Assembly (NCBI GenBank): GCA_963701295.1
Contig: OY969585.1
Span: forward strand, 288,001 to 352,000
DNA length: 64,000 nucleotides
Direction of reading: 5' to 3'
Source: Ignavibacteriota bacterium
GTDB lineage: Bacteria; Bacteroidota; Ignavibacteria; UBA10030
The notes beneath the pieces were generated by a model. It was not told where the DNA came from. It saw only the letters and a program-made list of their open reading frames with translations, and did not search any database. Shown here piece after piece: positions 7,143 to 18,098 of this stretch. A program made the translations under genes and the position numbers. How positions within the stretch are numbered: position 1 is the first letter of the stretch; each line of letters opens with the position of its first letter.

Positions 7143-9800
7143 CTATCCACCGATCCAGTAGGTCAGCTTTAGCATGAAAATATTGTCAGGCTTTGAACTG
7201 ACAAGACGGTCGAACGAGCCGTTTAATACAAATGTCCCGTCTACTATATTATCGGAACGGCTCTGTGTCCACACTAAAAAGAGTGTAGAACCGGGCATAT
7301 ATTCCCATCGCAGCACAGCATTGCCTCGAAGAGACACAAAATTGAAATTTGGATTTGAAATGTTCATTACTGGAGTAGGCCCGCTGCCATCTGGATCAAA
7401 ATCATAGCTGCCGATTGAACCATCAGAATTAAAATTTTTCATTATTGTAGAACCATCCTTCCCGAACACCAGGAAATCAAACGATCGCGGACGCGCAAAT
7501 TCTTTGAAATTGGTAAAATTCCCCGACGAAAGTAATGGCTGAACAAAGAGTTGGAAGCTCAGCGTTGGTGTGAGTGTCCAGTCAACACGTAATTGAGCCG
7601 AGAGTTCCTTATATATCAAATCTGCAAAGATATATCGCTTGCCATATGTTCCCGTAGCAAGTGGGTCATCAAAATTGTCAATCCAGTGTGCACGATCTGA
7701 GTTGAACACATATGCCGGACCGAATGATACTGAAACACTGGAGACAGGACGCATCGTAACGGACAAGTTGATACTATGATAAAACCCATTGTGTCCTTCA
7801 TATGCATACCAGTAAGCTCCGAAAACATACTTGTTGCGGCTATCGGAAGAATAATTGAAATTCCACTCGTAGCATACAGGATTGAGCATTTTCGGGCCGC
7901 CGCGCGTACGGTAGTCGTCGAAGGATTCAAATCCATAATCATAAGTCAAACCGAAGTAATCATAGCTTGGTAATTGGTAATCAATGCCACACCACACGCC
8001 TCGGCATGTTGCATTCCCGCCGAAGTCGCACGTGCCGAAAACTGAACCGTAAATATTCACATAACGATAATATGGCGTCGGGTCATTCCACTTGTATCCA
8101 GTACCCAAATGATAATTGATTACATCGGTCCGCGACAGAAATCCGAGATCCCCTGATTCAAAACCTGGGCTGATAAATCCGAGTGCCGCATTGAGCATCG
8201 TATTGCCTTTTTGTTTGTTCAAGGTAAACCGACCGGCATAACCGCTTAACGATGTTGCAGAACTGTCTAAAAATAAATAGTGTGCATCGGGCCGCTGAAA
8301 ATAATGGGAAGAACTTTGTTGTAAATTGATCATCCGTTCACGAGTGCCTTGAACGTTCGAGACTGCGGTCCAACCGGAAATCATATACGTTTTGTCTGCA
8401 TCGAATGCTGTCCAACCATCAAGAGCAGCGACATAGGCATTTTCATTGACATCTGTCTTAATACCAGTGTCATCGAAAAATCTGTTAACAGATGTAAAAA
8501 GAATTCCTGCACCCTGCCGACCGTCGTTAAAATCCCGTTGAACGCGTGCGACCGTATATGATGTCATCGGTTCGACTTCTAACGGCCAATGTGTTCCAGC
8601 AGTATCCAATTGCGCATACTCACGTTTCGTAAAAGCTTCAATCACTCCGACATTCCATCCATCAACAACTTTACCTGTGATTTTTGCGGCACCAAGGATA
8701 TGTGTGCCGAGCGGAACATCGGCATAATCGTAATCCGGCAGTCCACGCTGCGGTGGGCGACCGATGCGGCGACTGTAAAACAAACTCGGTGATGACCAGT
8801 TAAAAGACCAATAGTTACTCACACCTCCCTGCCCGAATGAAAAGATATTCATTCCTTCGAGAAAAAAAGGGCGTTTCTCATTGAAGTATGTTTCCACATC
8901 GCTTAAATTTACGACAGCAGGATCGACTTCCACTTGCCCGAAATCCGGATTGATTGTTCCTTCGAGTACTACGTTGGTGCCTAAACCCCATTTCAAATCC
9001 GCTCCAATAGATGGAGTATATTTTGATCCTGTGTTAAACGGATCGCCGGCATCGTGTGGTGCATATTCAGCTCGTTCGGTAATGTATGGAGTAACTTCCA
9101 ATCGGGTTGGAGTTGTAATATGTTCGATACCGATAAGATCAGGAAACCGAGAAACAAATCCGCTTTCGTTCCGTGGTGTGTAAACAAGGAAGGCTTGTTC
9201 TTTTTTCCTGCCAATAATGCGGTAGAAATTGATTCCCCAAACATATTGATCATGTTGTTCGAACCGCAATTGGGAAAACGGAATCTTCATCTCAACGCAC
9301 CATCCATCAGAAGTGATACGTGGTTTTGCTTCCCATATTCCATCCCAGCTTCCATCGCTCCAATCGTCGTTATAAAGAATCCCGTCCCGCAATACGCCTG
9401 CTGCCGATACGATAAAGTAAAAAGCATTCCGTTTGTCGTGGTATGAATCGATGCCCACAGCAAATTCATCGGAACTGGCATCGTTATCACGCCGTGCGAG
9501 TCGGGCAATAATGGAATCAGGATGTATATCTTTCATTCGAGCAGCAATGTATAATGCTTCGTCATCATATGCTACCCACACTTCTGTCGATTCAGATACT
9601 GCTTGCCCCTGGTTTGGCTCTTGCTGAAAAAATGCTGTTGTACCTGCACGCTGCCAGACCGATTCAGATAATATACCGTCAATGTGCATTCGTTCATTCA
9701 CACGAATTGCATGAATTTGTTTGACGAATTCCGGTGTTTGCGCATTGAGATGTAAGAAACCCACGAAGACGATGAATAGAAAGCAGCCGACAGAATGCAT
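7143..9800 (-). CDS. CBM9-like + DUF5916 outer-membrane protein
   Basis: signal peptide; IDGILSESVW, TEVWVAYDDEALYI, INPDFGQVEVD, YFNEKRPFFLEG, LFYSRRIGR; C-terminal LKLTYW. Confidence 0.8.
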   Translation of the reverse strand: MHSVGCFLFIVFVGFLHLNAQTPEFVKQIHAIRVNERMHIDGILSESVWQRAGTTAFFQQEPNQGQAVSESTEVWVAYDDEALYIAARMKDIHPDSIIARLARRDNDASSDEFAVGIDSYHDKRNAFYFIVSAAGVLRDGILYNDDWSDGSWDGIWEAKPRITSDGWCVEMKIPFSQLRFEQHDQYVWGINFYRIIGRKKEQAFLVYTPRNESGFVSRFPDLIGIEHITTPTRLEVTPYITERAEYAPHDAGDPFNTGSKYTPSIGADLKWGLGTNVVLEGTINPDFGQVEVDPAVVNLSDVETYFNEKRPFFLEGMNIFSFGQGGVSNYWSFNWSSPSLFYSRRIGRPPQRGLPDYDYADVPLGTHILGAAKITGKVVDGWNVGVIEAFTKREYAQLDTAGTHWPLEVEPMTSYTVARVQRDFNDGRQGAGILFTSVNRFFDDTGIKTDVNENAYVAALDGWTAFDADKTYMISGWTAVSNVQGTRERMINLQQSSSHYFQRPDAHYLFLDSSATSLSGYAGRFTLNKQKGNTMLNAALGFISPGFESGDLGFLSRTDVINYHLGTGYKWNDPTPYYRYVNIYGSVFGTCDFGGNATCRGVWCGIDYQLPSYDYFGLTYDYGFESFDDYRTRGGPKMLNPVCYEWNFNYSSDSRNKYVFGAYWYAYEGHNGFYHSINLSVTMRPVSSVSVSFGPAYVFNSDRAHWIDNFDDPLATGTYGKRYIFADLIYKELSAQLRVDWTLTPTLSFQLFVQPLLSSGNFTNFKEFARPRSFDFLVFGKDGSTIMKNFNSDGSIGSYDFDPDGSGPTPVMNISNPNFNFVSLRGNAVLRWEYMPGSTLFLVWTQSRSDNIVDGTFVLNGSFDRLVSSKPDNIFMLKLTYWIGG

Positions 9801-11377: not shown

Positions 11378-12985
11378 TTATTGAAAAACTTCTTTCTGGA
11401 TATCCTCTTTCATTACGGAAGCTGCCGACAGAAACATTTTAAATATCGAACCTTTTCCTTCTACGCTCTCTACCGTCATAAATCCTTTATGTCCCTTGAC
11501 AATGCCGAGGCAAATCGAAAGACCAAGCCCTGTACCTTTCCCTATTTCCTTCGTCGTATAGAACGGCTCAAAGATCTTATGGATTTCGACAGCCGGTATT
11601 CCGACGCCTGTATCGCTGACACTAAACACTACATACGCTCCTTCGACTGCATCAGTATGTTCTTCGGCCATCTCTTTCGATACCAAAACATCACCTACAG
11701 AAAATGTTAATTCACCGCCTTGCGGCATAGCATCGCATGCGTTGGTGCAAAGATTGATTAACACTTGATGGAGCTGGGTTCTATCCCCGATCACCGGTGA
11801 AACAATATCCGATATACGAGTGCGGACTGAAACGCTGTCAGGTACAATTTGACCTAATAAACCTGTAATATCTTTTACAATCTTCAAAGGATTGAGTTTT
11901 ACATGCTTACCCTCCACTCCTTTCACAAAGGAAAGAACTTGATAGACCATTTCAGAGCCATGCTTCGCACTTGACTCGATGGCTTTTAAAAGCCGCTGAC
12001 TTTGGGTATCCAACAACTTCCGTTTAAGTACTTCCACACCGACCAGGACCGGCGCTAGTGTATTGCTCAAGTCATGCGCGATACCACTTGCGAAAATGCC
12101 GATACTTTCCACTCGCTGTGCTCGGAGAAAGCGTGTTTCCAATCGTTTTCGCTCTGTCACATCCGTGCAAACTTGAAGAATGCCAGCGGGCTCGCCGCCT
12201 GGATTGTGAACAAGAGTCCATCGACAATCTGCGATGATGGCCGTTCCATCTCTTTTTTTTTGGCACAGTTCGCCCGACCATGCCGAATGCTGTACCGTCA
12301 ACGTGTATGCGCGATCAAATCCTTCCGTTCCATCCGACCCATAGATGTACTTCACTACATCTCTTCCTACCACTTCTAACGGCTCGTAGCCATACATTCG
12401 TTCAGCACCTTTGTTCCAGTATCGTACCGTTTTGTTAAGGTCAAGAACGAGGATGGCATCCTGCGCCTGATCCAGCAGCAACGCTTGTTCACGAATTTTA
12501 TCTTCCGCAAGCCGGCGTGTGGTGATGTCGATAATAACTGCTTCGGTAAAACTTTTGAGAGAATGGATAGAAGCAGAGAAAGAAATCCAAAATTCCGATC
12601 CGTTTTTACGGCGCAAAAGGGTCTTATAATCCTCCACTGACTGACCTGCTGATAAACGTTCAATAAGATATTCCCGATCTTGAAGAGACATTGAAAAGAG
12701 CACTCCTTTTACTTCATCGAATGTCTCGACTGCAAACATACGAAGGAGTGCGTGATTTGCATCGACAACATTCCAATGATCGGTCGTTATGCGAAGCATA
12801 CCGGCAGGTGACTGCTCAAAAAGATTACGGTACTTTCGTTCGCTGATTGTCAATTCTTCCAGTTGACGCTTCTTGGTCGTAAGCTCCTTTTGTTTGCCTG
12901 TCATAACTGCGGCCACAAATCCAACAGTAATCGTTAAGAGTGCAATGGTTCCAAGTGCAACTGTCCACCAAATATTAAATGTCAC
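11378..12985 (-). CDS. single-TM PAS-PAS sensor histidine kinase (no receiver)
   Basis: likely GTG start at 12985 overlapping the upstream TGA (GTGA); one N-terminal TM, two PAS domains, H-box GIAHDLSN, QVLINLCTNA, DTGVG, FYTTK, GTGLGL. Confidence 0.88.
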   Translation of the reverse strand: MTFNIWWTVALGTIALLTITVGFVAAVMTGKQKELTTKKRQLEELTISERKYRNLFEQSPAGMLRITTDHWNVVDANHALLRMFAVETFDEVKGVLFSMSLQDREYLIERLSAGQSVEDYKTLLRRKNGSEFWISFSASIHSLKSFTEAVIIDITTRRLAEDKIREQALLLDQAQDAILVLDLNKTVRYWNKGAERMYGYEPLEVVGRDVVKYIYGSDGTEGFDRAYTLTVQHSAWSGELCQKKRDGTAIIADCRWTLVHNPGGEPAGILQVCTDVTERKRLETRFLRAQRVESIGIFASGIAHDLSNTLAPVLVGVEVLKRKLLDTQSQRLLKAIESSAKHGSEMVYQVLSFVKGVEGKHVKLNPLKIVKDITGLLGQIVPDSVSVRTRISDIVSPVIGDRTQLHQVLINLCTNACDAMPQGGELTFSVGDVLVSKEMAEEHTDAVEGAYVVFSVSDTGVGIPAVEIHKIFEPFYTTKEIGKGTGLGLSICLGIVKGHKGFMTVESVEGKGSIFKMFLSAASVMKEDIQKEVFQ

Positions 12986-13605
12986 TTCTTGCACAAAAAG
13001 CCCCGCATATAGAGCAGATAAGAGATGATTATAAAAACCCAGTTCAAAGGCCATATCATCAGAAAGCGTTCAGTCGAAATCTGAAGCATCTTGTTAAACA
13101 AAGCGAACAAGAACAGACTTCCCGCTGAATAGATGATCGTACCAGCAGCAACCCAAAAGCGTGGATCGTTTATCCATACGATGTCGCTTTCCTTCACAAC
13201 ATCTAACAATAAGTAGGCTGAAAATGCTATTTGTAATACTTTTGAGATCGTTGCTGTCCAGTCATCAGCAAGCGAGAGTGGTTCAAATGAAAACTTACTG
13301 ACGATCCAGAAGAAGAGAAACACAACAAGACATATCAGGAGAACCCTTTTTTTCCCATGCTGCTTCATCCATAATGAATATATAAAAACTATGGCTGTCA
13401 ATTCAATCATCGTAGAAAAATGCGATATCCAGAGGTTGTAGATATGAAGAGAGGTAAGAGTCCATTCTACGCAAGTCATTCCGACATTGAATAGAATGAG
13501 CCATTCAAGAATTCGTAAAGGATGTGGGAGACTCCGATAACGGAAGCCTCCCACCAACATCGCCCCTATCTCAACAAAGAAAGCGATATAAAAAAGAACT
13601 GGCAT
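12982..13605 (-). CDS. uncharacterised 7-TM membrane protein
   Basis: seven hydrophobic segments (approx. aa 1-21, 30-53, 57-80, 88-105, 116-137, 148-170, 181-204); NLWISHFSTMIE and PRFWVAAG motifs; no soluble domain. Confidence 0.75.
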   Translation of the reverse strand: MPVLFYIAFFVEIGAMLVGGFRYRSLPHPLRILEWLILFNVGMTCVEWTLTSLHIYNLWISHFSTMIELTAIVFIYSLWMKQHGKKRVLLICLVVFLFFWIVSKFSFEPLSLADDWTATISKVLQIAFSAYLLLDVVKESDIVWINDPRFWVAAGTIIYSAGSLFLFALFNKMLQISTERFLMIWPLNWVFIIISYLLYMRGFLCKK

Positions 13606-13619
13606 GAGGATATAAAGAA

Positions 13620-14039
13620 CTACCGCGCGAGTTCACTGACAACATCACAATATGGAGGACATGGAGACATTCTCTCCATAATGAGACCTGTTTGTATGTC
13701 CTGCCCTTTTGCGTCAACGCCGACAAGTACCAAAGTCGGTGAGCCATCATCCATCTGCGCATAATAATAACGGATGCCTATAACTCCCGGCTGCGCGAGT
13801 ATCTTATCAAAGGCATTGCGACCAAAGAAGCCGCCCTTTATGGAAGGAGCTTTGAGATTCGAACGATGATTTTTTACGAGACGAAGTGCCGTCATAAGAT
13901 CAACTTGATGATTCTCATTACCTGTGAGTTGTTGATTTTGAGAAGTCGAAGCGCTCTTCGCGGGACCATGAAATGCCCAAAGCAATCCAAAACACAGAAC
14001 AACAAGAATGCCTAGGATAAGTGTTCCTGTGGTTTTCAT
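13620..14039 (-). CDS. secreted/membrane-anchored small protein with C-terminal PCPPxC motif
   Basis: SD aggagga; N-terminal hydrophobic signal; core ILAQPGVIGIRYYY...LVLVGVD..GQD; ends ERMSPCPPYCDVVSELAR. Confidence 0.8.
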   Translation of the reverse strand: MKTTGTLILGILVVLCFGLLWAFHGPAKSASTSQNQQLTGNENHQVDLMTALRLVKNHRSNLKAPSIKGGFFGRNAFDKILAQPGVIGIRYYYAQMDDGSPTLVLVGVDAKGQDIQTGLIMERMSPCPPYCDVVSELAR

Positions 14040-14429
14040 ACATCCTCCTATTATATAAGAAATGATTGGTTACTCATTCTCGTGTCCTGGCGTTATTGTA
14101 GAACACGAAACGATGCGATTTTTGATTAGTCTGGCGTCGCACACTTAGAAGATACTCCAATTCATGAAGAAAGCAAGTCCTTCTTAGAGGAACTCTTGAA
14201 ATGATACGCATCTTGAATTGCGTTTCTCGAAAGACATTCTTACATTCTAATAGAATGGAACCACGATAAGGTTTCTCGTGTAGAGAATGTCGCGATTCGT
14301 TTATCCACCTTCCGAAAATCGTAAACGTTCCAAACAAGAGAGGCTTCTGCGAGTTGAGGGCTACCGCAAGAAGACCTATGACAACAGATAGGAGAATCTT
14401 ACTTGGATTCGGCACGGATCATAGAGACA

Positions 14430-15515
14430 ATGAAATCTTCTCGGGAAATACTCAAGCGCGTTGATCAACTTGTTAAGGCTAATAATTTAGAAAAAGCTCT
14501 TCATGAAGTTAGGAAAGCGCGTGAGATAGATCCAAAGAATTTATATGCATTTGCTTACGAAGAACGCATTCAAGAACTTTTCGCTCAACGGCAGCATCAA
14601 GAAGCATTAACTCACCAAAAACTCAAGAGTTCAGATACACCGAGTGAAGATCTGAAACCCTACAACATGGGAGACCAGTTGCTCGGTGAACGCACCGATA
14701 TAACTGAAACGAAAGTACCGGCGTTGTATGAAGAATTTAAAAAAGCCGGATTGCGGAAATCTGACCAAACAGAATCCACTCGGACAAAGCGAGCATCCAA
14801 AGAGGCGTTAGAGATTTTCAGACAGGCGCTGCTGCTTGCATGGTCAGATGGCCAGAAAACAGATGAAGAAGTGAACGAACTTCAATATCTCAAACAATCA
14901 CTCTTCATCACTGACGAGGAGCAGGAACTATTAGATCGGCAAGCGAAACTGGAATGCTACATCCTCTTGCTCAAACATTTGCTCCAGTCCCATGCACCGA
15001 AGGGAGAGGTCGCAAGTACTCTTGCTGAGCTTCGTAGAAGTTTTGATGTTTCCAGCTCCGATCAAGTCGTTATCGAAGCAAATCTGGTTGTTCACAAGGA
15101 AGGGAAAGGGAAAAAGCAAACAATCGCCGTCATTGACGACGAAAAGCAAATACTCACACTGATGAAAGAAATACTAACGCAAGCACATTATCAAGTGATG
15201 GATTTTAGCACATCGGACAATGCATATGATTTTTTAAGAAAAGAGAAAGCTGACTGTATTCTCTGCGATATCAGCTTAGAAACTTCCACGATGAATGGTT
15301 TTTTATTCTATGAGAAAGTCAGAGAATTGCGTCACCTCCAACAAGTGCCATTTATCTTCATAACAGGATTGAATGATGTTGTGTTGATGCGTGCCGGCAA
15401 AGAAATGGGTGTTGATGACTTCCTTGTTAAACCTATCCATCGCGAAAATCTCCTTGCTACAATTCGGGGAAGAATCAAGAGGTATGAGCAAATGAAACTT
15501 CTATCGGGACTATAG
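14430..15515 (+). CDS. response regulator with N-terminal helical (TPR/TerB-like) region and C-terminal receiver
   Basis: C-terminal VIDDE...ILCDI...FIFITG...DDFLVKP; N-terminal AWSDG..TDEE helical repeat. Confidence 0.75.
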   Translation: MKSSREILKRVDQLVKANNLEKALHEVRKAREIDPKNLYAFAYEERIQELFAQRQHQEALTHQKLKSSDTPSEDLKPYNMGDQLLGERTDITETKVPALYEEFKKAGLRKSDQTESTRTKRASKEALEIFRQALLLAWSDGQKTDEEVNELQYLKQSLFITDEEQELLDRQAKLECYILLLKHLLQSHAPKGEVASTLAELRRSFDVSSSDQVVIEANLVVHKEGKGKKQTIAVIDDEKQILTLMKEILTQAHYQVMDFSTSDNAYDFLRKEKADCILCDISLETSTMNGFLFYEKVRELRHLQQVPFIFITGLNDVVLMRAGKEMGVDDFLVKPIHRENLLATIRGRIKRYEQMKLLSGL

Positions 15516-15557
15516 AATTCACACGGGAAGTGAACGATTCTCTAAAATCTAAGATAT

Positions 15558-18098
15558 CTAATTTCTCTTAAAGACATTTCTCAAGATTTCCCCAAAAACG
15601 CTTTTCTTGAATGGTTTCAGAAGAACGGTATGTATGCCAAGAGATTTGAGTTTATCCGGACCATCCATTTGATCATACCCTGTCATTAATATAACCGGTA
15701 AGTCTTTACGTACCTGAAGGATTTTACTCGTGAGAATGAGACCCGTCATCTGCGGCATTGTATGATCGGTAATAAGAAGATCATAGCCATGGGGATCATT
15801 TTCAAATGCTTTCAGTGCGTCCAAAGGCTTTGTAAATGGAAACGCCCGATATCCTAGTCCTTTTAATAACTCTGTGAGTGCATCAAGCAATTGCGGCTCA
15901 TCATCTACTATCATAATGCGTTCGGAACTTCCAAGGCTCTCTTTAATTTCTTCAAGCTTCACACTCTGTTCTTCACCTTCGTAGATCGGAAGATACACAT
16001 CAACTTGCGTACCTTTCCCCACTTGACTTTGAACTTTTGTCACACCGCCATGATTTTTCACAATAGCATGAACAATTGCTAGTCCTAATCCAGTCCCCTT
16101 CCCTGGTCCTTTCGTCGTAAAAAATGGTTCAAAAATTCTTTTCAACGTGACTGCATCCATACCGGTTCCCGAATCCTGAACAGTAAACACCGCATATCGT
16201 CCTTTTTTCAGATCAGGGTGAAACAACATTGCCCGGTCATCATATTCTATACTCTTCTGGCGTAAAATAAGTTTCCCATCAGTTCCATTCATTGCTTGAG
16301 CTGCATTAGTACAAAGATTCATGACAACCTGATGGATCTGCGTTGCATCGGCTAAGACAAGAGGTCCTTTTATTGGTAAATCTAGTTTAATCTCGACGGT
16401 TGTAGGAATTGATGCACGGAGGAGTTTCATACCCTCACGTAAGATATAGTGCAATCGAACCGGCCGATAGTTTGAATCTTGCTTCCGACTAAATGCCAAT
16501 ATTTGTTGAACAAGTTCTTGTGCCCGATCCGAAGCATGAATCACTTCATCGATATGTTTCATTGCGCGGTGGTTCCTGCTCAGTTTTAATTTTACTAACT
16601 CTGAGTTGCCAATAATAACCGAGAGAATATTGTTGAAATCATGCGCTATACCGCCGGCAAGAGAACCGACAGCTTCCATTTTTTGCGATTGAAGTAATTG
16701 TGCTTGCAAATTTCTTTGCGTTTCTTCTGCTTTCACTCGTTCCGTAATATCGCGGAGAATAAGTGTGTAGAGCTCCTCTTTTCCCACCTTCACTTTCGAA
16801 ATAGAAGCTTCAATAGGAAAGTTCTCTCCGTTGACACGAACACCATTAATTGTTCTCATTGTTCCTTCGATCAAGCCTGCAACCGAATTTTGATCGGGCT
16901 CATATGAATGACTCTGATCTTTAACCTTCTGAGACAGGGCGATGAAACGATCTATAGATTGTCCGAGAGCCTCGGCTTCTGAGCAACGGAACATTTGTTC
17001 CGAAGCAGGATTAAATGATTGGATCCGTAGATGCTTATCTAATGTAATAATAGCTTCCATTGCCGACGTTATGATGCTTGAAAGGCGGCTTTGATTTTCG
17101 CGAATGACTTCTTGAGTTCTTTTCAACTCTGTCAGATCGGTCACAATACCAAGTACAGATGGCTCTCCTTCATAGCGAATCAATTTTGACATTTTGAGAC
17201 ATTCAATTTTTTTATTCGCTTTATCGACGAGCGTACATTCATATGGTTCAACTTTGATTCCTGCCAAATGTTGTCTAATTTTTTGAAGGACCATGTACCG
17301 ATGTTCAGGTGCAATAATCGAAAGAAAGTCAAACTCTGGAGCATAGATTTCTTCACGCGAATAGCCGATCAATTCTTTACATTTTTCATTCACATAAATA
17401 ATTTTCCCATTCTTGTGAATGTAGACCATGTTCGGCAGTTCTTCTGTCAGCGTTCTGAATTTCTCTTCAGATTCTCGTAATTCTTCGGCTTGCTTTCGAA
17501 TTGCTTTTTCGCTTGTTCGAGCTTTGTTAATACTTCGTAAAAGACGATCCGCCAGGATACGAACAGCAATTGCTGTTATTAAGAGGATAACCGCTATATC
17601 AACGATATCAAGATAATCAGTGTACTGGTGGTATTGCTTAACAATCACTCTCGCAATTTCGAGGAATCCAATGACGATAACGGTGAAAATCGTCCAGAAT
17701 GTGAATGCATAAAAAAAGGGTGGCTTAAAAGCAATTCCTGCAAACATAAGACATATTGGGATACCAAGAAGGACGATGTTGTGAAGACCTCCAGATGCAT
17801 AAAGGAGGTACGTGATAAAACCCATAACTGTCCAAAGAAGAAGACTTTTTGCCCATTGCAAACGACCTATCCTCAGAAAGACTATTGACAGAATAATCAA
17901 TACACCAACCAAAAGTGTTTGAAGAACGAACAGATACCGTCCGGCGACTTCTCTCTGGAAAACGAGTGTAGCAAATCCAGCAAGAATACTTAGTGCGATG
18001 ACATTGAGGATTTCTGCAACGCGGTTTTTTTCTTCATCACCAAAATCCGGTGGTTTAAGGAGTGAGTGGACCTTTTGATACATTTCTTTTATTCGCAT
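15558..18098 (-). CDS. membrane hybrid sensor kinase (multi-TM, PAS x2, HisKA, HATPase, REC)
   Basis: [32 protein letters not shown], receiver VDDE...ITDHTMP...KP. Confidence 0.92.

Follow-up and report, generated by a model that had tools for sequence, protein, structure and literature searches.

The DNA analyzed here, referred to as the window, is a stretch of 64,000 nucleotides (nt) from an Ignavibacteriota bacterium (contig OY969585.1). An earlier reading of its letters alone, the first-pass annotation, had singled out three co-oriented, tightly packed genes as a candidate signaling system: a small open reading frame (ORF1) for a secreted protein with a C-terminal CPPxC motif, a gene for a stand-alone protein of seven transmembrane (7-TM) helices, and a gene for a histidine kinase without a sensor. 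The arrangement held on reanalysis, and all three genes lie on the minus strand (Table 1). ORF1 had been credited with a strong Shine-Dalgarno sequence, and AGGAGG is indeed present at 14049-14044, 4 nt ahead of the ATG. The gap between the ORF1 stop and the 7-TM start is 14 nt. The TGA of the 7-TM gene (12984-12982) overlaps the GTG at 12985 that had been taken as the kinase start, but since the orthologous kinases start at M/V/L-QEVTF, the GTG at 12994 is the likelier start, giving a protein of 538 amino acids (aa) and a 13-nt overlap. It is in the same frame as the GTG at 12985 and as an ATG at 13054, from which the longest ORF (558 aa) would run.

TABLE 1 Features of the three-gene cassette (window positions, or residues where so marked)
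Feature	Position	Strand	Description and basis
ORF1	13620..14039	-	139 aa; ORF sequence, homologues
7-TM gene	12982..13605	-	207 aa; stand-alone seven-helix protein of uncatalogued family
Histidine kinase	11378..12994	-	Single-pass; Pfam, NCBIfam, orthologue starts
Kinase, transmembrane helix	~12973-12902	-
Kinase, second PAS	~12478-12158	-
Kinase, HisKA	~12097-11921	-
Kinase, HATPase_c	~11788-11426	-
Conserved upstream region	14040..14230	-	Contains the Shine-Dalgarno sequence; sequence, nt identity to relatives
Hypervariable allele island	13040..13990	-	ORF1 past its signal-peptide codons and nearly the whole 7-TM gene
ORF1, signal peptide/anchor	residues 1-24
ORF1, variable linker	residues 25-43
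ORF1, alpha/beta core	residues 44-112		Conserved
ORF1, variable stretch	residues 113-126
ORF1, CPPYC	residues 127-131		Invariant; a variable tail follows

The kinase had been described as having a single TM helix, no extracytoplasmic domain and the domain order PAS-PAS-HisKA-HATPase. Pfam analysis agreed, detecting PAS in two stretches followed by HisKA at 30.0 bits (cut-off, 26.9) and HATPase_c at 81.5 bits (cut-off, 26.4), which makes the protein a histidine kinase of the HisKA class. Approximately 8 residues lie ahead of the TM helix and, because only these residues and the one helix precede PAS, no part of the kinase protrudes outside the cell. Several orthologous kinases are ~110 to 130 aa longer at the C terminus (667 to 687 aa, versus 538 to 558 aa for the window kinase). 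The extension (L038:7200-7615 and L039:7180-7597, compared with window 11378-11440) had no Pfam match and is missing, via an insertion or deletion, in the window and in loci L035, L040 and L042. A run of nine A residues (12253-12261) falls within the second PAS region, which reads CQKKRDG there; the terminator scan picked out this run, read on the opposite strand, as resembling a terminator with a hairpin and a T-run.

The product of the 7-TM gene consists of helices only, as had been predicted: the AlphaFold2 model has seven, with a predicted local distance difference test score (pLDDT) of 87.6 and a predicted template modeling score (pTM) of 0.85. A word-indexed search returned 88 homologues and an exhaustive profile search 2588 clusters at an E value of ≤1e-3, the best 150 of which were all 83 to 250 aa long, the size of a stand-alone protein. 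No fused form of at least 409 aa was found, which is weak evidence; lengths of 364 to 408 lay outside the search. The sole "fused" 7-TM-helix-PAS protein found was a 350-aa metagenome protein, P0167. Its junction runs into the upstream frame of the kinase, as with a one-base frameshift or an assembly error, and its eighth helix would place the PAS domains outside the cell.

Neither ORF1 nor the 7-TM protein had a sequence match in Pfam, NCBIfam or the PDB, in line with the first-pass annotation, which knew of no characterized function for such proteins. Profile searches of PDB sequences with both proteins gave chance-level rows only, and their nearest clusters in the ESM Atlas are named "hypothetical protein" and carry no Pfam family. 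The window 7-TM protein matched 0 Pfam families even at E values of ≤10. Sub-threshold matches to PF07695 (7TMR-DISM_7TM; gathering score, 29 bits) were obtained for 4 of 26 family members, the best with an E value of 3.6e-4; no match above the cut-off was seen in the window's own genome or in 20 relatives. Kinship with 7TMR-DISM_7TM fails because comparison by hhalign of a 67-sequence alignment of the family with 25 true members from the same phylum gave a probability of 1.6%, with 69 columns out of register. A relationship to the N-terminal membrane region of the neighboring hybrid kinase (15558-18098) was likewise rejected (1.4% probability).

For ORF1, the features described earlier are all present: the N terminus is hydrophobic, the core reads GIRYYYAQMDDGSPTLVLVGVDAKGQD, and ERMSPCPPYC is found in the C-terminal part. 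The AlphaFold2 model is of mediocre quality (pLDDT, 69.6) and shows two helices and a three-stranded sheet, with the cysteine tail disordered (pLDDT of <50). Foldseek comparison of the model with the PDB gave nothing at E values of ≤1e-3, and a wider fold search aligned the N-terminal helix alone and not the core. The only NCBIfam row was at chance level (TypA; E value, 0.049; 11.6 bits against a cut-off of 1260). A word-indexed search found 195 homologues. The motif on which the first-pass annotation had placed weight is widely conserved: CPPxC occurs in 46 of 53 ORF1 domain hits, the form C-P-x-x-C extends phylum-wide, and the C, P and C of the motif plus one Tyr are the only invariant residues of the phylum-wide alignment. 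By segment, identity is 87% in the motif, 38% in residues 113 to 126 and 24% in residues 132 to 139; the most variable segments of ORF1 thus flank the cysteine motif on both sides. A metal site made of His44 and the two cysteines was considered but does not hold as a general feature, since conservation of His44 does not extend across the phylum.

The first-pass annotation had also suggested that a C-terminal peptide might be cleaved from ORF1, and this found no support: ~90 residues make up a conserved, predicted folded domain, and the tail past the motif is 0 to 12 residues long and frequently absent. Family f9 (loci L019, L022, L024-L027 and L029-L031; e.g., G079:C1:3395201-3397469) carries 2 to 5 tandem copies of ORF1 before one 7-TM gene. 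Where these arrays were checked (L022, L024, L025, L026, L030 and L031), the copy nearest the 7-TM gene has lost the cysteine motif; these six copies read ALP(I/V)SRFHEE where others have PCPPFC.

According to the first-pass annotation, similar proteins recur side by side in Bacteroidota genomes. This is correct: synteny of the three genes extends through the class and beyond it to the phylum. When 301 genomes of the window's class were surveyed with profiles, the 7-TM profile was found in 54 genomes and the ORF1 profile in 56, of which 53 were common to both. ORF1 lay upstream, on the same strand and within 3.5 kb, for 69 of the 74 7-TM matches, and 100 of the 113 ORF1 matches adjoined a 7-TM gene, so the proposed check of gene neighborhood came out in favor of conserved adjacency. 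Among the five unpaired 7-TM matches, one was at a contig end and two were weak or partial. Pfam identified kinase domains downstream of the 7-TM gene in 26 of 30 class loci; in two of the remaining four, the locus stops partway through a single-pass PAS-GAF-PAS protein, and two have a short single-pass protein only.

The window's genome contains a second full cassette outside the window (G000:C1:1052898-1055560; L003:5899-8560), composed of an ORF1 homologue with CPPYC, a 7-TM homologue, a 271-aa single-pass HisKA_3 kinase and a REC-GerE (NarL-type) regulator. Two variations on the layout were noted. In family f3 (L016:1016-1744, L018:1016-1510 and L021:1013-1567), a single-pass protein of 164 to 243 aa that resembles the N-terminal helix and first PAS region of the kinase is encoded downstream of the 7-TM gene; in L021 a full kinase comes next. 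Elsewhere, two or three 7-TM paralogues stand in tandem after one ORF1 (G184:C7:162414-164861, G111:C1:111079-112402 and L099:1477-2893); in L099, the only such locus for which the downstream gene was read, they precede a single kinase.

With a broader profile, the 7-TM gene was found in 63 of 301 sampled Bacteroidota genomes (approximately a fifth), 45 of them outside the class. A kinase came next in 13 of the best 15 out-of-class loci by Pfam. These kinases are 247 to 340 aa long, mostly ~250 to 280, and consist of one helix and HisKA_3/HATPase_c with no sensor domain; wherever the following gene was scanned, it encoded a REC-GerE regulator. Seven of 14 out-of-class upstream proteins matched the ORF1 profile at E values of ≤1e-5 (out to 2e-6), and most of the others still have C-P-x-x-C. 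The kinases identified within and outside the class all begin with a short N terminus and one hydrophobic helix, and beyond it they are of several types (PAS-PAS-HisKA, PAS-HisKA-HATPase-REC, PAS-HisKA_3 and bare HisKA_3). Since the kinase class varies, the constant parts are the 7-TM protein and the single kinase helix. The 7-TM stop and kinase start overlap or lie ≤10 nt apart in the window and the loci read, across kinase classes. No further conserved gene between or beside the three, whether for a protease, a modifying enzyme or an exporter, was found in 13 ten-kb loci and 15 distant ones. The window cassette is therefore the Ignavibacteria form of a Bacteroidota-wide unit of CPxxC protein, 7-TM protein and single-pass kinase, usually with a NarL-type regulator; it differs from the wider unit in the PAS domains on its HisKA kinase, the lack of an adjacent regulator and the Sec-type N terminus of its ORF1. 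A full-text literature search, judged from titles and abstract beginnings, found no paper on the cassette.

Comparison of nine orthologous loci, namely the window and eight loci from metagenome-assembled genomes, showed that the input genes are far more polymorphic than their surroundings. Mean pairwise identity was 56% for ORF1 and 57% for the 7-TM protein, versus 73% for the kinase, 79% for the dehydrogenase encoded beyond it and 77% for the ABC-F ATPase encoded upstream in relatives. For loci L038 and L039, the ABC-F protein, kinase and dehydrogenase are 95, 94 and 92% identical, in contrast to 63% for ORF1 and 50% for the 7-TM protein. Sliding DNA identity between the window and four near relatives revealed a sharp island at ~13990-13040 with 54 to 72% identity against 84 to 98% over the kinase and dehydrogenase genes. 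The same sharp-edged island of low identity was seen between the relatives, and over all these comparisons identity outside the island was 84 to 99%. It ends exactly at the kinase start in an otherwise collinear operon. The synonymous divergence (dS) was 0.87 to 2.3 in the island and 0.12 to 0.36 in the flanks, a 3.5- to 10-fold difference, and the ratio of nonsynonymous to synonymous divergence (dN/dS) in the island was 0.14 to 0.32. The high dS and this dN/dS indicate that the island alleles are old and under purifying selection, not recently accelerated. The idea that variation in the 7-TM protein faces one side of the membrane gained no support, mean column entropy being 1.26 in the outer TM halves and 1.19 in the inner halves.

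Trees of ORF1 and of the 7-TM protein agree with each other in grouping {L038,L042} and {L039,L040}, with starred support, in conflict with the flank trees, which group {L038,L039} (88/92). Approximately unbiased (AU) tests rejected {L038,L039} with the 7-TM data (P = 2e-5) and with the ORF1 data (P = 1e-9), and {L038,L042} was rejected with the flank data (P = 0.0165). The dS excess and the conflict between island and flank trees therefore suggest that the two input genes are an old matched pair that recombines and that feeds a conserved kinase. The first-pass annotation had likened the system to agr, and in their polymorphism the input genes are indeed hypervariable in the manner of agr and com specificity loci.

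That the pair recombines as a unit would also be expected if ORF1 and the 7-TM gene were an autonomous two-gene element, such as an exclusion or immunity pair, that inserts beside kinases, with the kinase sensing via PAS alone. One locus, L090, has the pair without a kinase, and the two PAS domains of the window kinase could sense on their own. However, most of the phylum-wide cassette kinases (247 to 281 aa; one helix, HisKA_3 and HATPase_c) have no sensor domain at all, and the stop/start overlap with the kinase is maintained whatever the kinase class. The island boundary at the kinase start, in an operon that is otherwise collinear, also speaks against an inserting element, as does the lack of phage copies in INPHARED (searched by tblastn) or IMG/VR (searched with a close-family profile). 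We therefore consider an autonomous pair very improbable.

The location of ORF1 relative to the membrane differs between lineages. In the window's order it has a Sec-type signal peptide or anchor; canonical AxA-Q cleavage sites, or ends resembling a lipobox, occur in relatives. The description of ORF1 as secreted is thus apt for this order, the only one with the hydrophobic N terminus, but does not extend to two other families of the class or to most other classes, in which the protein begins at the conserved domain. The 7-TM protein, by positive-inside bias, is N-out/C-in in the window's family and in 12 of 14 distant members, with a mean of 1.7 to 2.3 Lys plus Arg residues per loop on the cytoplasmic side of the family versus 0.1 to 1.1 on the outer side. 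A fixed 7-TM topology combined with an ORF1 that may or may not have a signal peptide would place the partner on one side of the membrane in some lineages and on the other side in others; from its N termini, ORF1 is probably exported in the window's lineage and cytoplasmic in most lineages.

Taken together, these observations lead us to favor, with moderate confidence, a model in which the three genes form one operon for a split sensor kinase, with ORF1 and the 7-TM protein as the specificity-setting input pair and the kinase as the conserved transmitter. The kinase, with one membrane helix, two cytoplasmic PAS domains and a catalytic core, would be purely a transmitter, and its membrane-level input would come from the separately encoded seven-helix protein. 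The overlap of the 7-TM gene with the start of the kinase makes translational coupling of the two probable; their products may be made together and associate via their membrane helices. The CPxxC-tailed ORF1 would be the matched partner of the 7-TM protein. Judging from its N terminus, in the window's lineage it would be exported by Sec to the periplasmic side, where it could act as a cell-bound co-sensor or ligand, its two cysteines perhaps forming a switch that responds to redox state or metal. Specificity would be set jointly by ORF1 and the 7-TM protein, with old, highly divergent alleles recombining from strain to strain within conserved flanking sequence and beside a conserved kinase. 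The first-pass annotation had cast the 7-TM protein as the receptor subunit of the sensor-less kinase; synteny, the stand-alone form of the 7-TM protein and a kinase without an outside sensor are genomic evidence in keeping with this role. A complex prediction for the 7-TM protein with ORF1 residues 40 to 139 scored 0.00, in a run without controls that weighs neither way on binding.

Several observations weigh against the split-kinase model. Contacts among the three proteins, a function for the cysteines and the kind of signal sensed are inferred. The groups compared in the AU tests were chosen after the trees had been viewed, and the nine loci are few and mutually kin. ORF1 and the 7-TM protein share the discordant tree pairs, but they are not invariably inherited as a pair: the window ORF1 is 76 to 78% identical to its counterparts in L039 and L040 and the window 7-TM protein only 52 to 55%. 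The TM helix of the kinase does not covary with the 7-TM alleles, its identity of 73% being that of the rest of the kinase. By alignment, 8 of 10 out-of-class members and the within-class families f9 and f17 lack the signal peptide of ORF1, and a partner that would sit on differing sides of the membrane is hard to reconcile with a single conserved binding face, which weakens the model. The cysteine motif is missing in 7 of 53 ORF1 domains, six of them second copies in tandem arrays of one family; the seventh, with RPAWC at the motif position, is the first domain of the pair in L032. His44 is invariant in the close set but not phylum-wide. Finally, the window cassette has no neighboring response regulator.

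A different use of the same parts would be a pheromone circuit of the agr/ComQXPA kind, in which ORF1, or a disulfide-closed CPxxC peptide, is released and sensed by the 7-TM protein and kinase of sister cells, the allele classes being pherotypes. A hypervariable, anciently diverged input block beside a conserved transmitter is the pattern of agrBDC and comQXP, and it is the pattern observed here; moreover, the invariant cysteine motif lies between the most variable segments of ORF1, ORF1 is present in 2 to 5 tandem copies in one family, and most phylum-wide cassettes have a HisKA_3 kinase and a REC-GerE regulator, the classes of ComP and ComA. Nor is a missing signal peptide an obstacle, as precursors without one are normal for pheromone systems. 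However, the ~90-residue conserved, predicted folded domain of ORF1 is unlike the short precursors of pheromones, its tail past the motif is often missing, and no conserved gene of the cassette encodes an exporter, a protease or a modifying enzyme. Because the lineage is diderm, a protein of ~11 kDa exported by Sec would remain periplasmic unless processed, and at the resolution used the dN/dS of the island did not point to positive selection. On balance, release as a pheromone appears unlikely to us.

The lack of an outside sensor in a single-pass kinase is also a property of intramembrane-sensing kinases, which need accessory proteins. The cassette could accordingly be a module for envelope stress, redox state or metals, akin to LiaF-LiaS or CpxP/ZraP, in which the 7-TM protein would be a constitutive kinase regulator that reports membrane perturbation and ORF1 a thiol- or metal-binding modulator. 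Variability would then arise from an arms race with phages or toxins that exploit the two proteins and not from signal specificity. The invariant C-P-x-x-C is consistent with this, and the presence of ORF1 on either side of the membrane is easier to understand if ORF1 senses a redox or metal cue that is permeant than if it is the ligand of a receptor. One cassette subfamily is directly preceded by genes for SufS, a NifU-like scaffold and an Fe/Mn superoxide dismutase (L044:718-4131, L045:887-4188 and L047:1-3173; by Pfam for L044 and by gene order in the ORF listing for L045 and L047). This neighborhood, which may hint at a redox or iron-sulfur link, is restricted to three loci that, because they are related, count as approximately one observation. 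Against such a module, the discordant tree pairings common to ORF1 and the 7-TM protein point to a matched pair and not to independent targets, Pfam and NCBIfam gave no match to LiaF, CpxP or another accessory family, and most phages are kept away from the inner-membrane proteins of diderms. We regard this explanation as doubtful, with a rather low probability.

Compared with known systems, the cassette resembles agr and ComQXPA in that genes for a small cysteine-bearing product and for a membrane protein immediately precede the kinase gene. A further likeness is the hypervariable block that covers the input genes beside a conserved transmitter, and the phylum-wide form, with its HisKA_3 kinase and NarL/LuxR-type regulator, resembles ComP/ComA. 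It differs from agr in that no AgrB or AgrD match was found (neither ORF1 nor the 7-TM protein has a Pfam family), and from ComQXPA in that no gene for a ComQ-like enzyme occurs in the cassette at the 13 ten-kb and 15 distant loci. Unlike in either system, ORF1 is no short precursor but a protein of 96 to 253 aa with a conserved, predicted folded domain, the proposed receptor is encoded apart from the kinase instead of forming its N terminus, and the window kinase is of the HisKA type with PAS domains and has no regulator alongside. The 7TMR-DISM receptors, reportedly described by Anantharaman and Aravind in 2003, are likewise bacterial seven-helix membrane modules coupled to histidine kinase output; however, true members are fused to output domains (frames of 468 to 980 aa in 107 of the 108 matches listed), whereas the 7-TM protein of the cassette stands alone, and it lacks the DISMED extracellular domain.

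In LiaF-LiaS-LiaR/VraT-VraS-VraR, UhpC-UhpB-UhpA, NreA-NreB-NreC and HbpS-SenS-SenR, as in the cassette, a non-sensing kinase is fed by one or two separate proteins. The HisKA_3/NarL pair of most cassette members and the single-pass or intramembrane kinase are further likenesses to such accessory-dependent systems. The input proteins of the cassette differ in belonging to other, uncatalogued families, with no LiaF-type match. The system is thus accessory-protein-dependent two-component signaling built from two uncatalogued families with an allele island. To our knowledge, no accessory-dependent two-component system has been reported in which the accessory genes form a recombining hypervariable island.

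The surroundings of the cassette differ between the window and its relatives. Identity to L035, L038, L039 and L040 at the nucleotide level is 84 to 90% from ~14190 to 14040 and <55% beyond ~14240, and synteny with relatives stops upstream of ~14230. In place of window positions 14230-18098, relatives carry a divergent gene for an ABC-F ATPase upstream of ORF1, the orthologue of which, 93% identical, sits 1.3 Mb away in the window's genome. The window instead has genes for a 370-aa protein with a C-terminal receiver domain (14403-15515, plus strand) and a multi-TM hybrid kinase (15558-18098, minus strand). Downstream, the kinase gene is followed by a convergent gene for a 2-hydroxyacid dehydrogenase (Pfam) and not by a REC-GerE response regulator. 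Past the dehydrogenase gene lies one for an 885-aa secreted protein with DUF5916 and CBM9-like domains (7143-9800, minus strand), as in three relatives (L038, L039 and L040). A sigma-70 promoter scan was uninformative, giving 3 promoter-like sites where 6.7 were expected, the promoter model probably being wrong for this phylum, and counts in the combined sigma-70 promoter and terminator scan were at or below the shuffled expectation.

These findings bear on how kinases of this phylum receive their signals. The input of sensor-less kinases of a common class appears to come from two families outside Pfam, NCBIfam and the PDB. The occurrence of ORF1 both with and without a signal peptide merits attention in its own right. 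A phylum-wide system of strain-specific recognition, in which the CPxxC protein, whole or as a disulfide-closed fragment, is the cognate ligand of a receptor shaped like a G-protein-coupled receptor that drives a sensor-less kinase in trans, with the alleles as pherotypes, is a speculative extension to which we assign a low likelihood. If true, it would be the first protein or peptide kin signaling in the phylum and the first bacterial seven-helix receptor to act via a separate kinase. The allele island offers an experimental handle on whether the pair sets specificity and on cell-cell recognition. If the 7-TM protein is the receptor, this would explain how the single-helix kinases of the phylum sense, which has been a long-standing gap.

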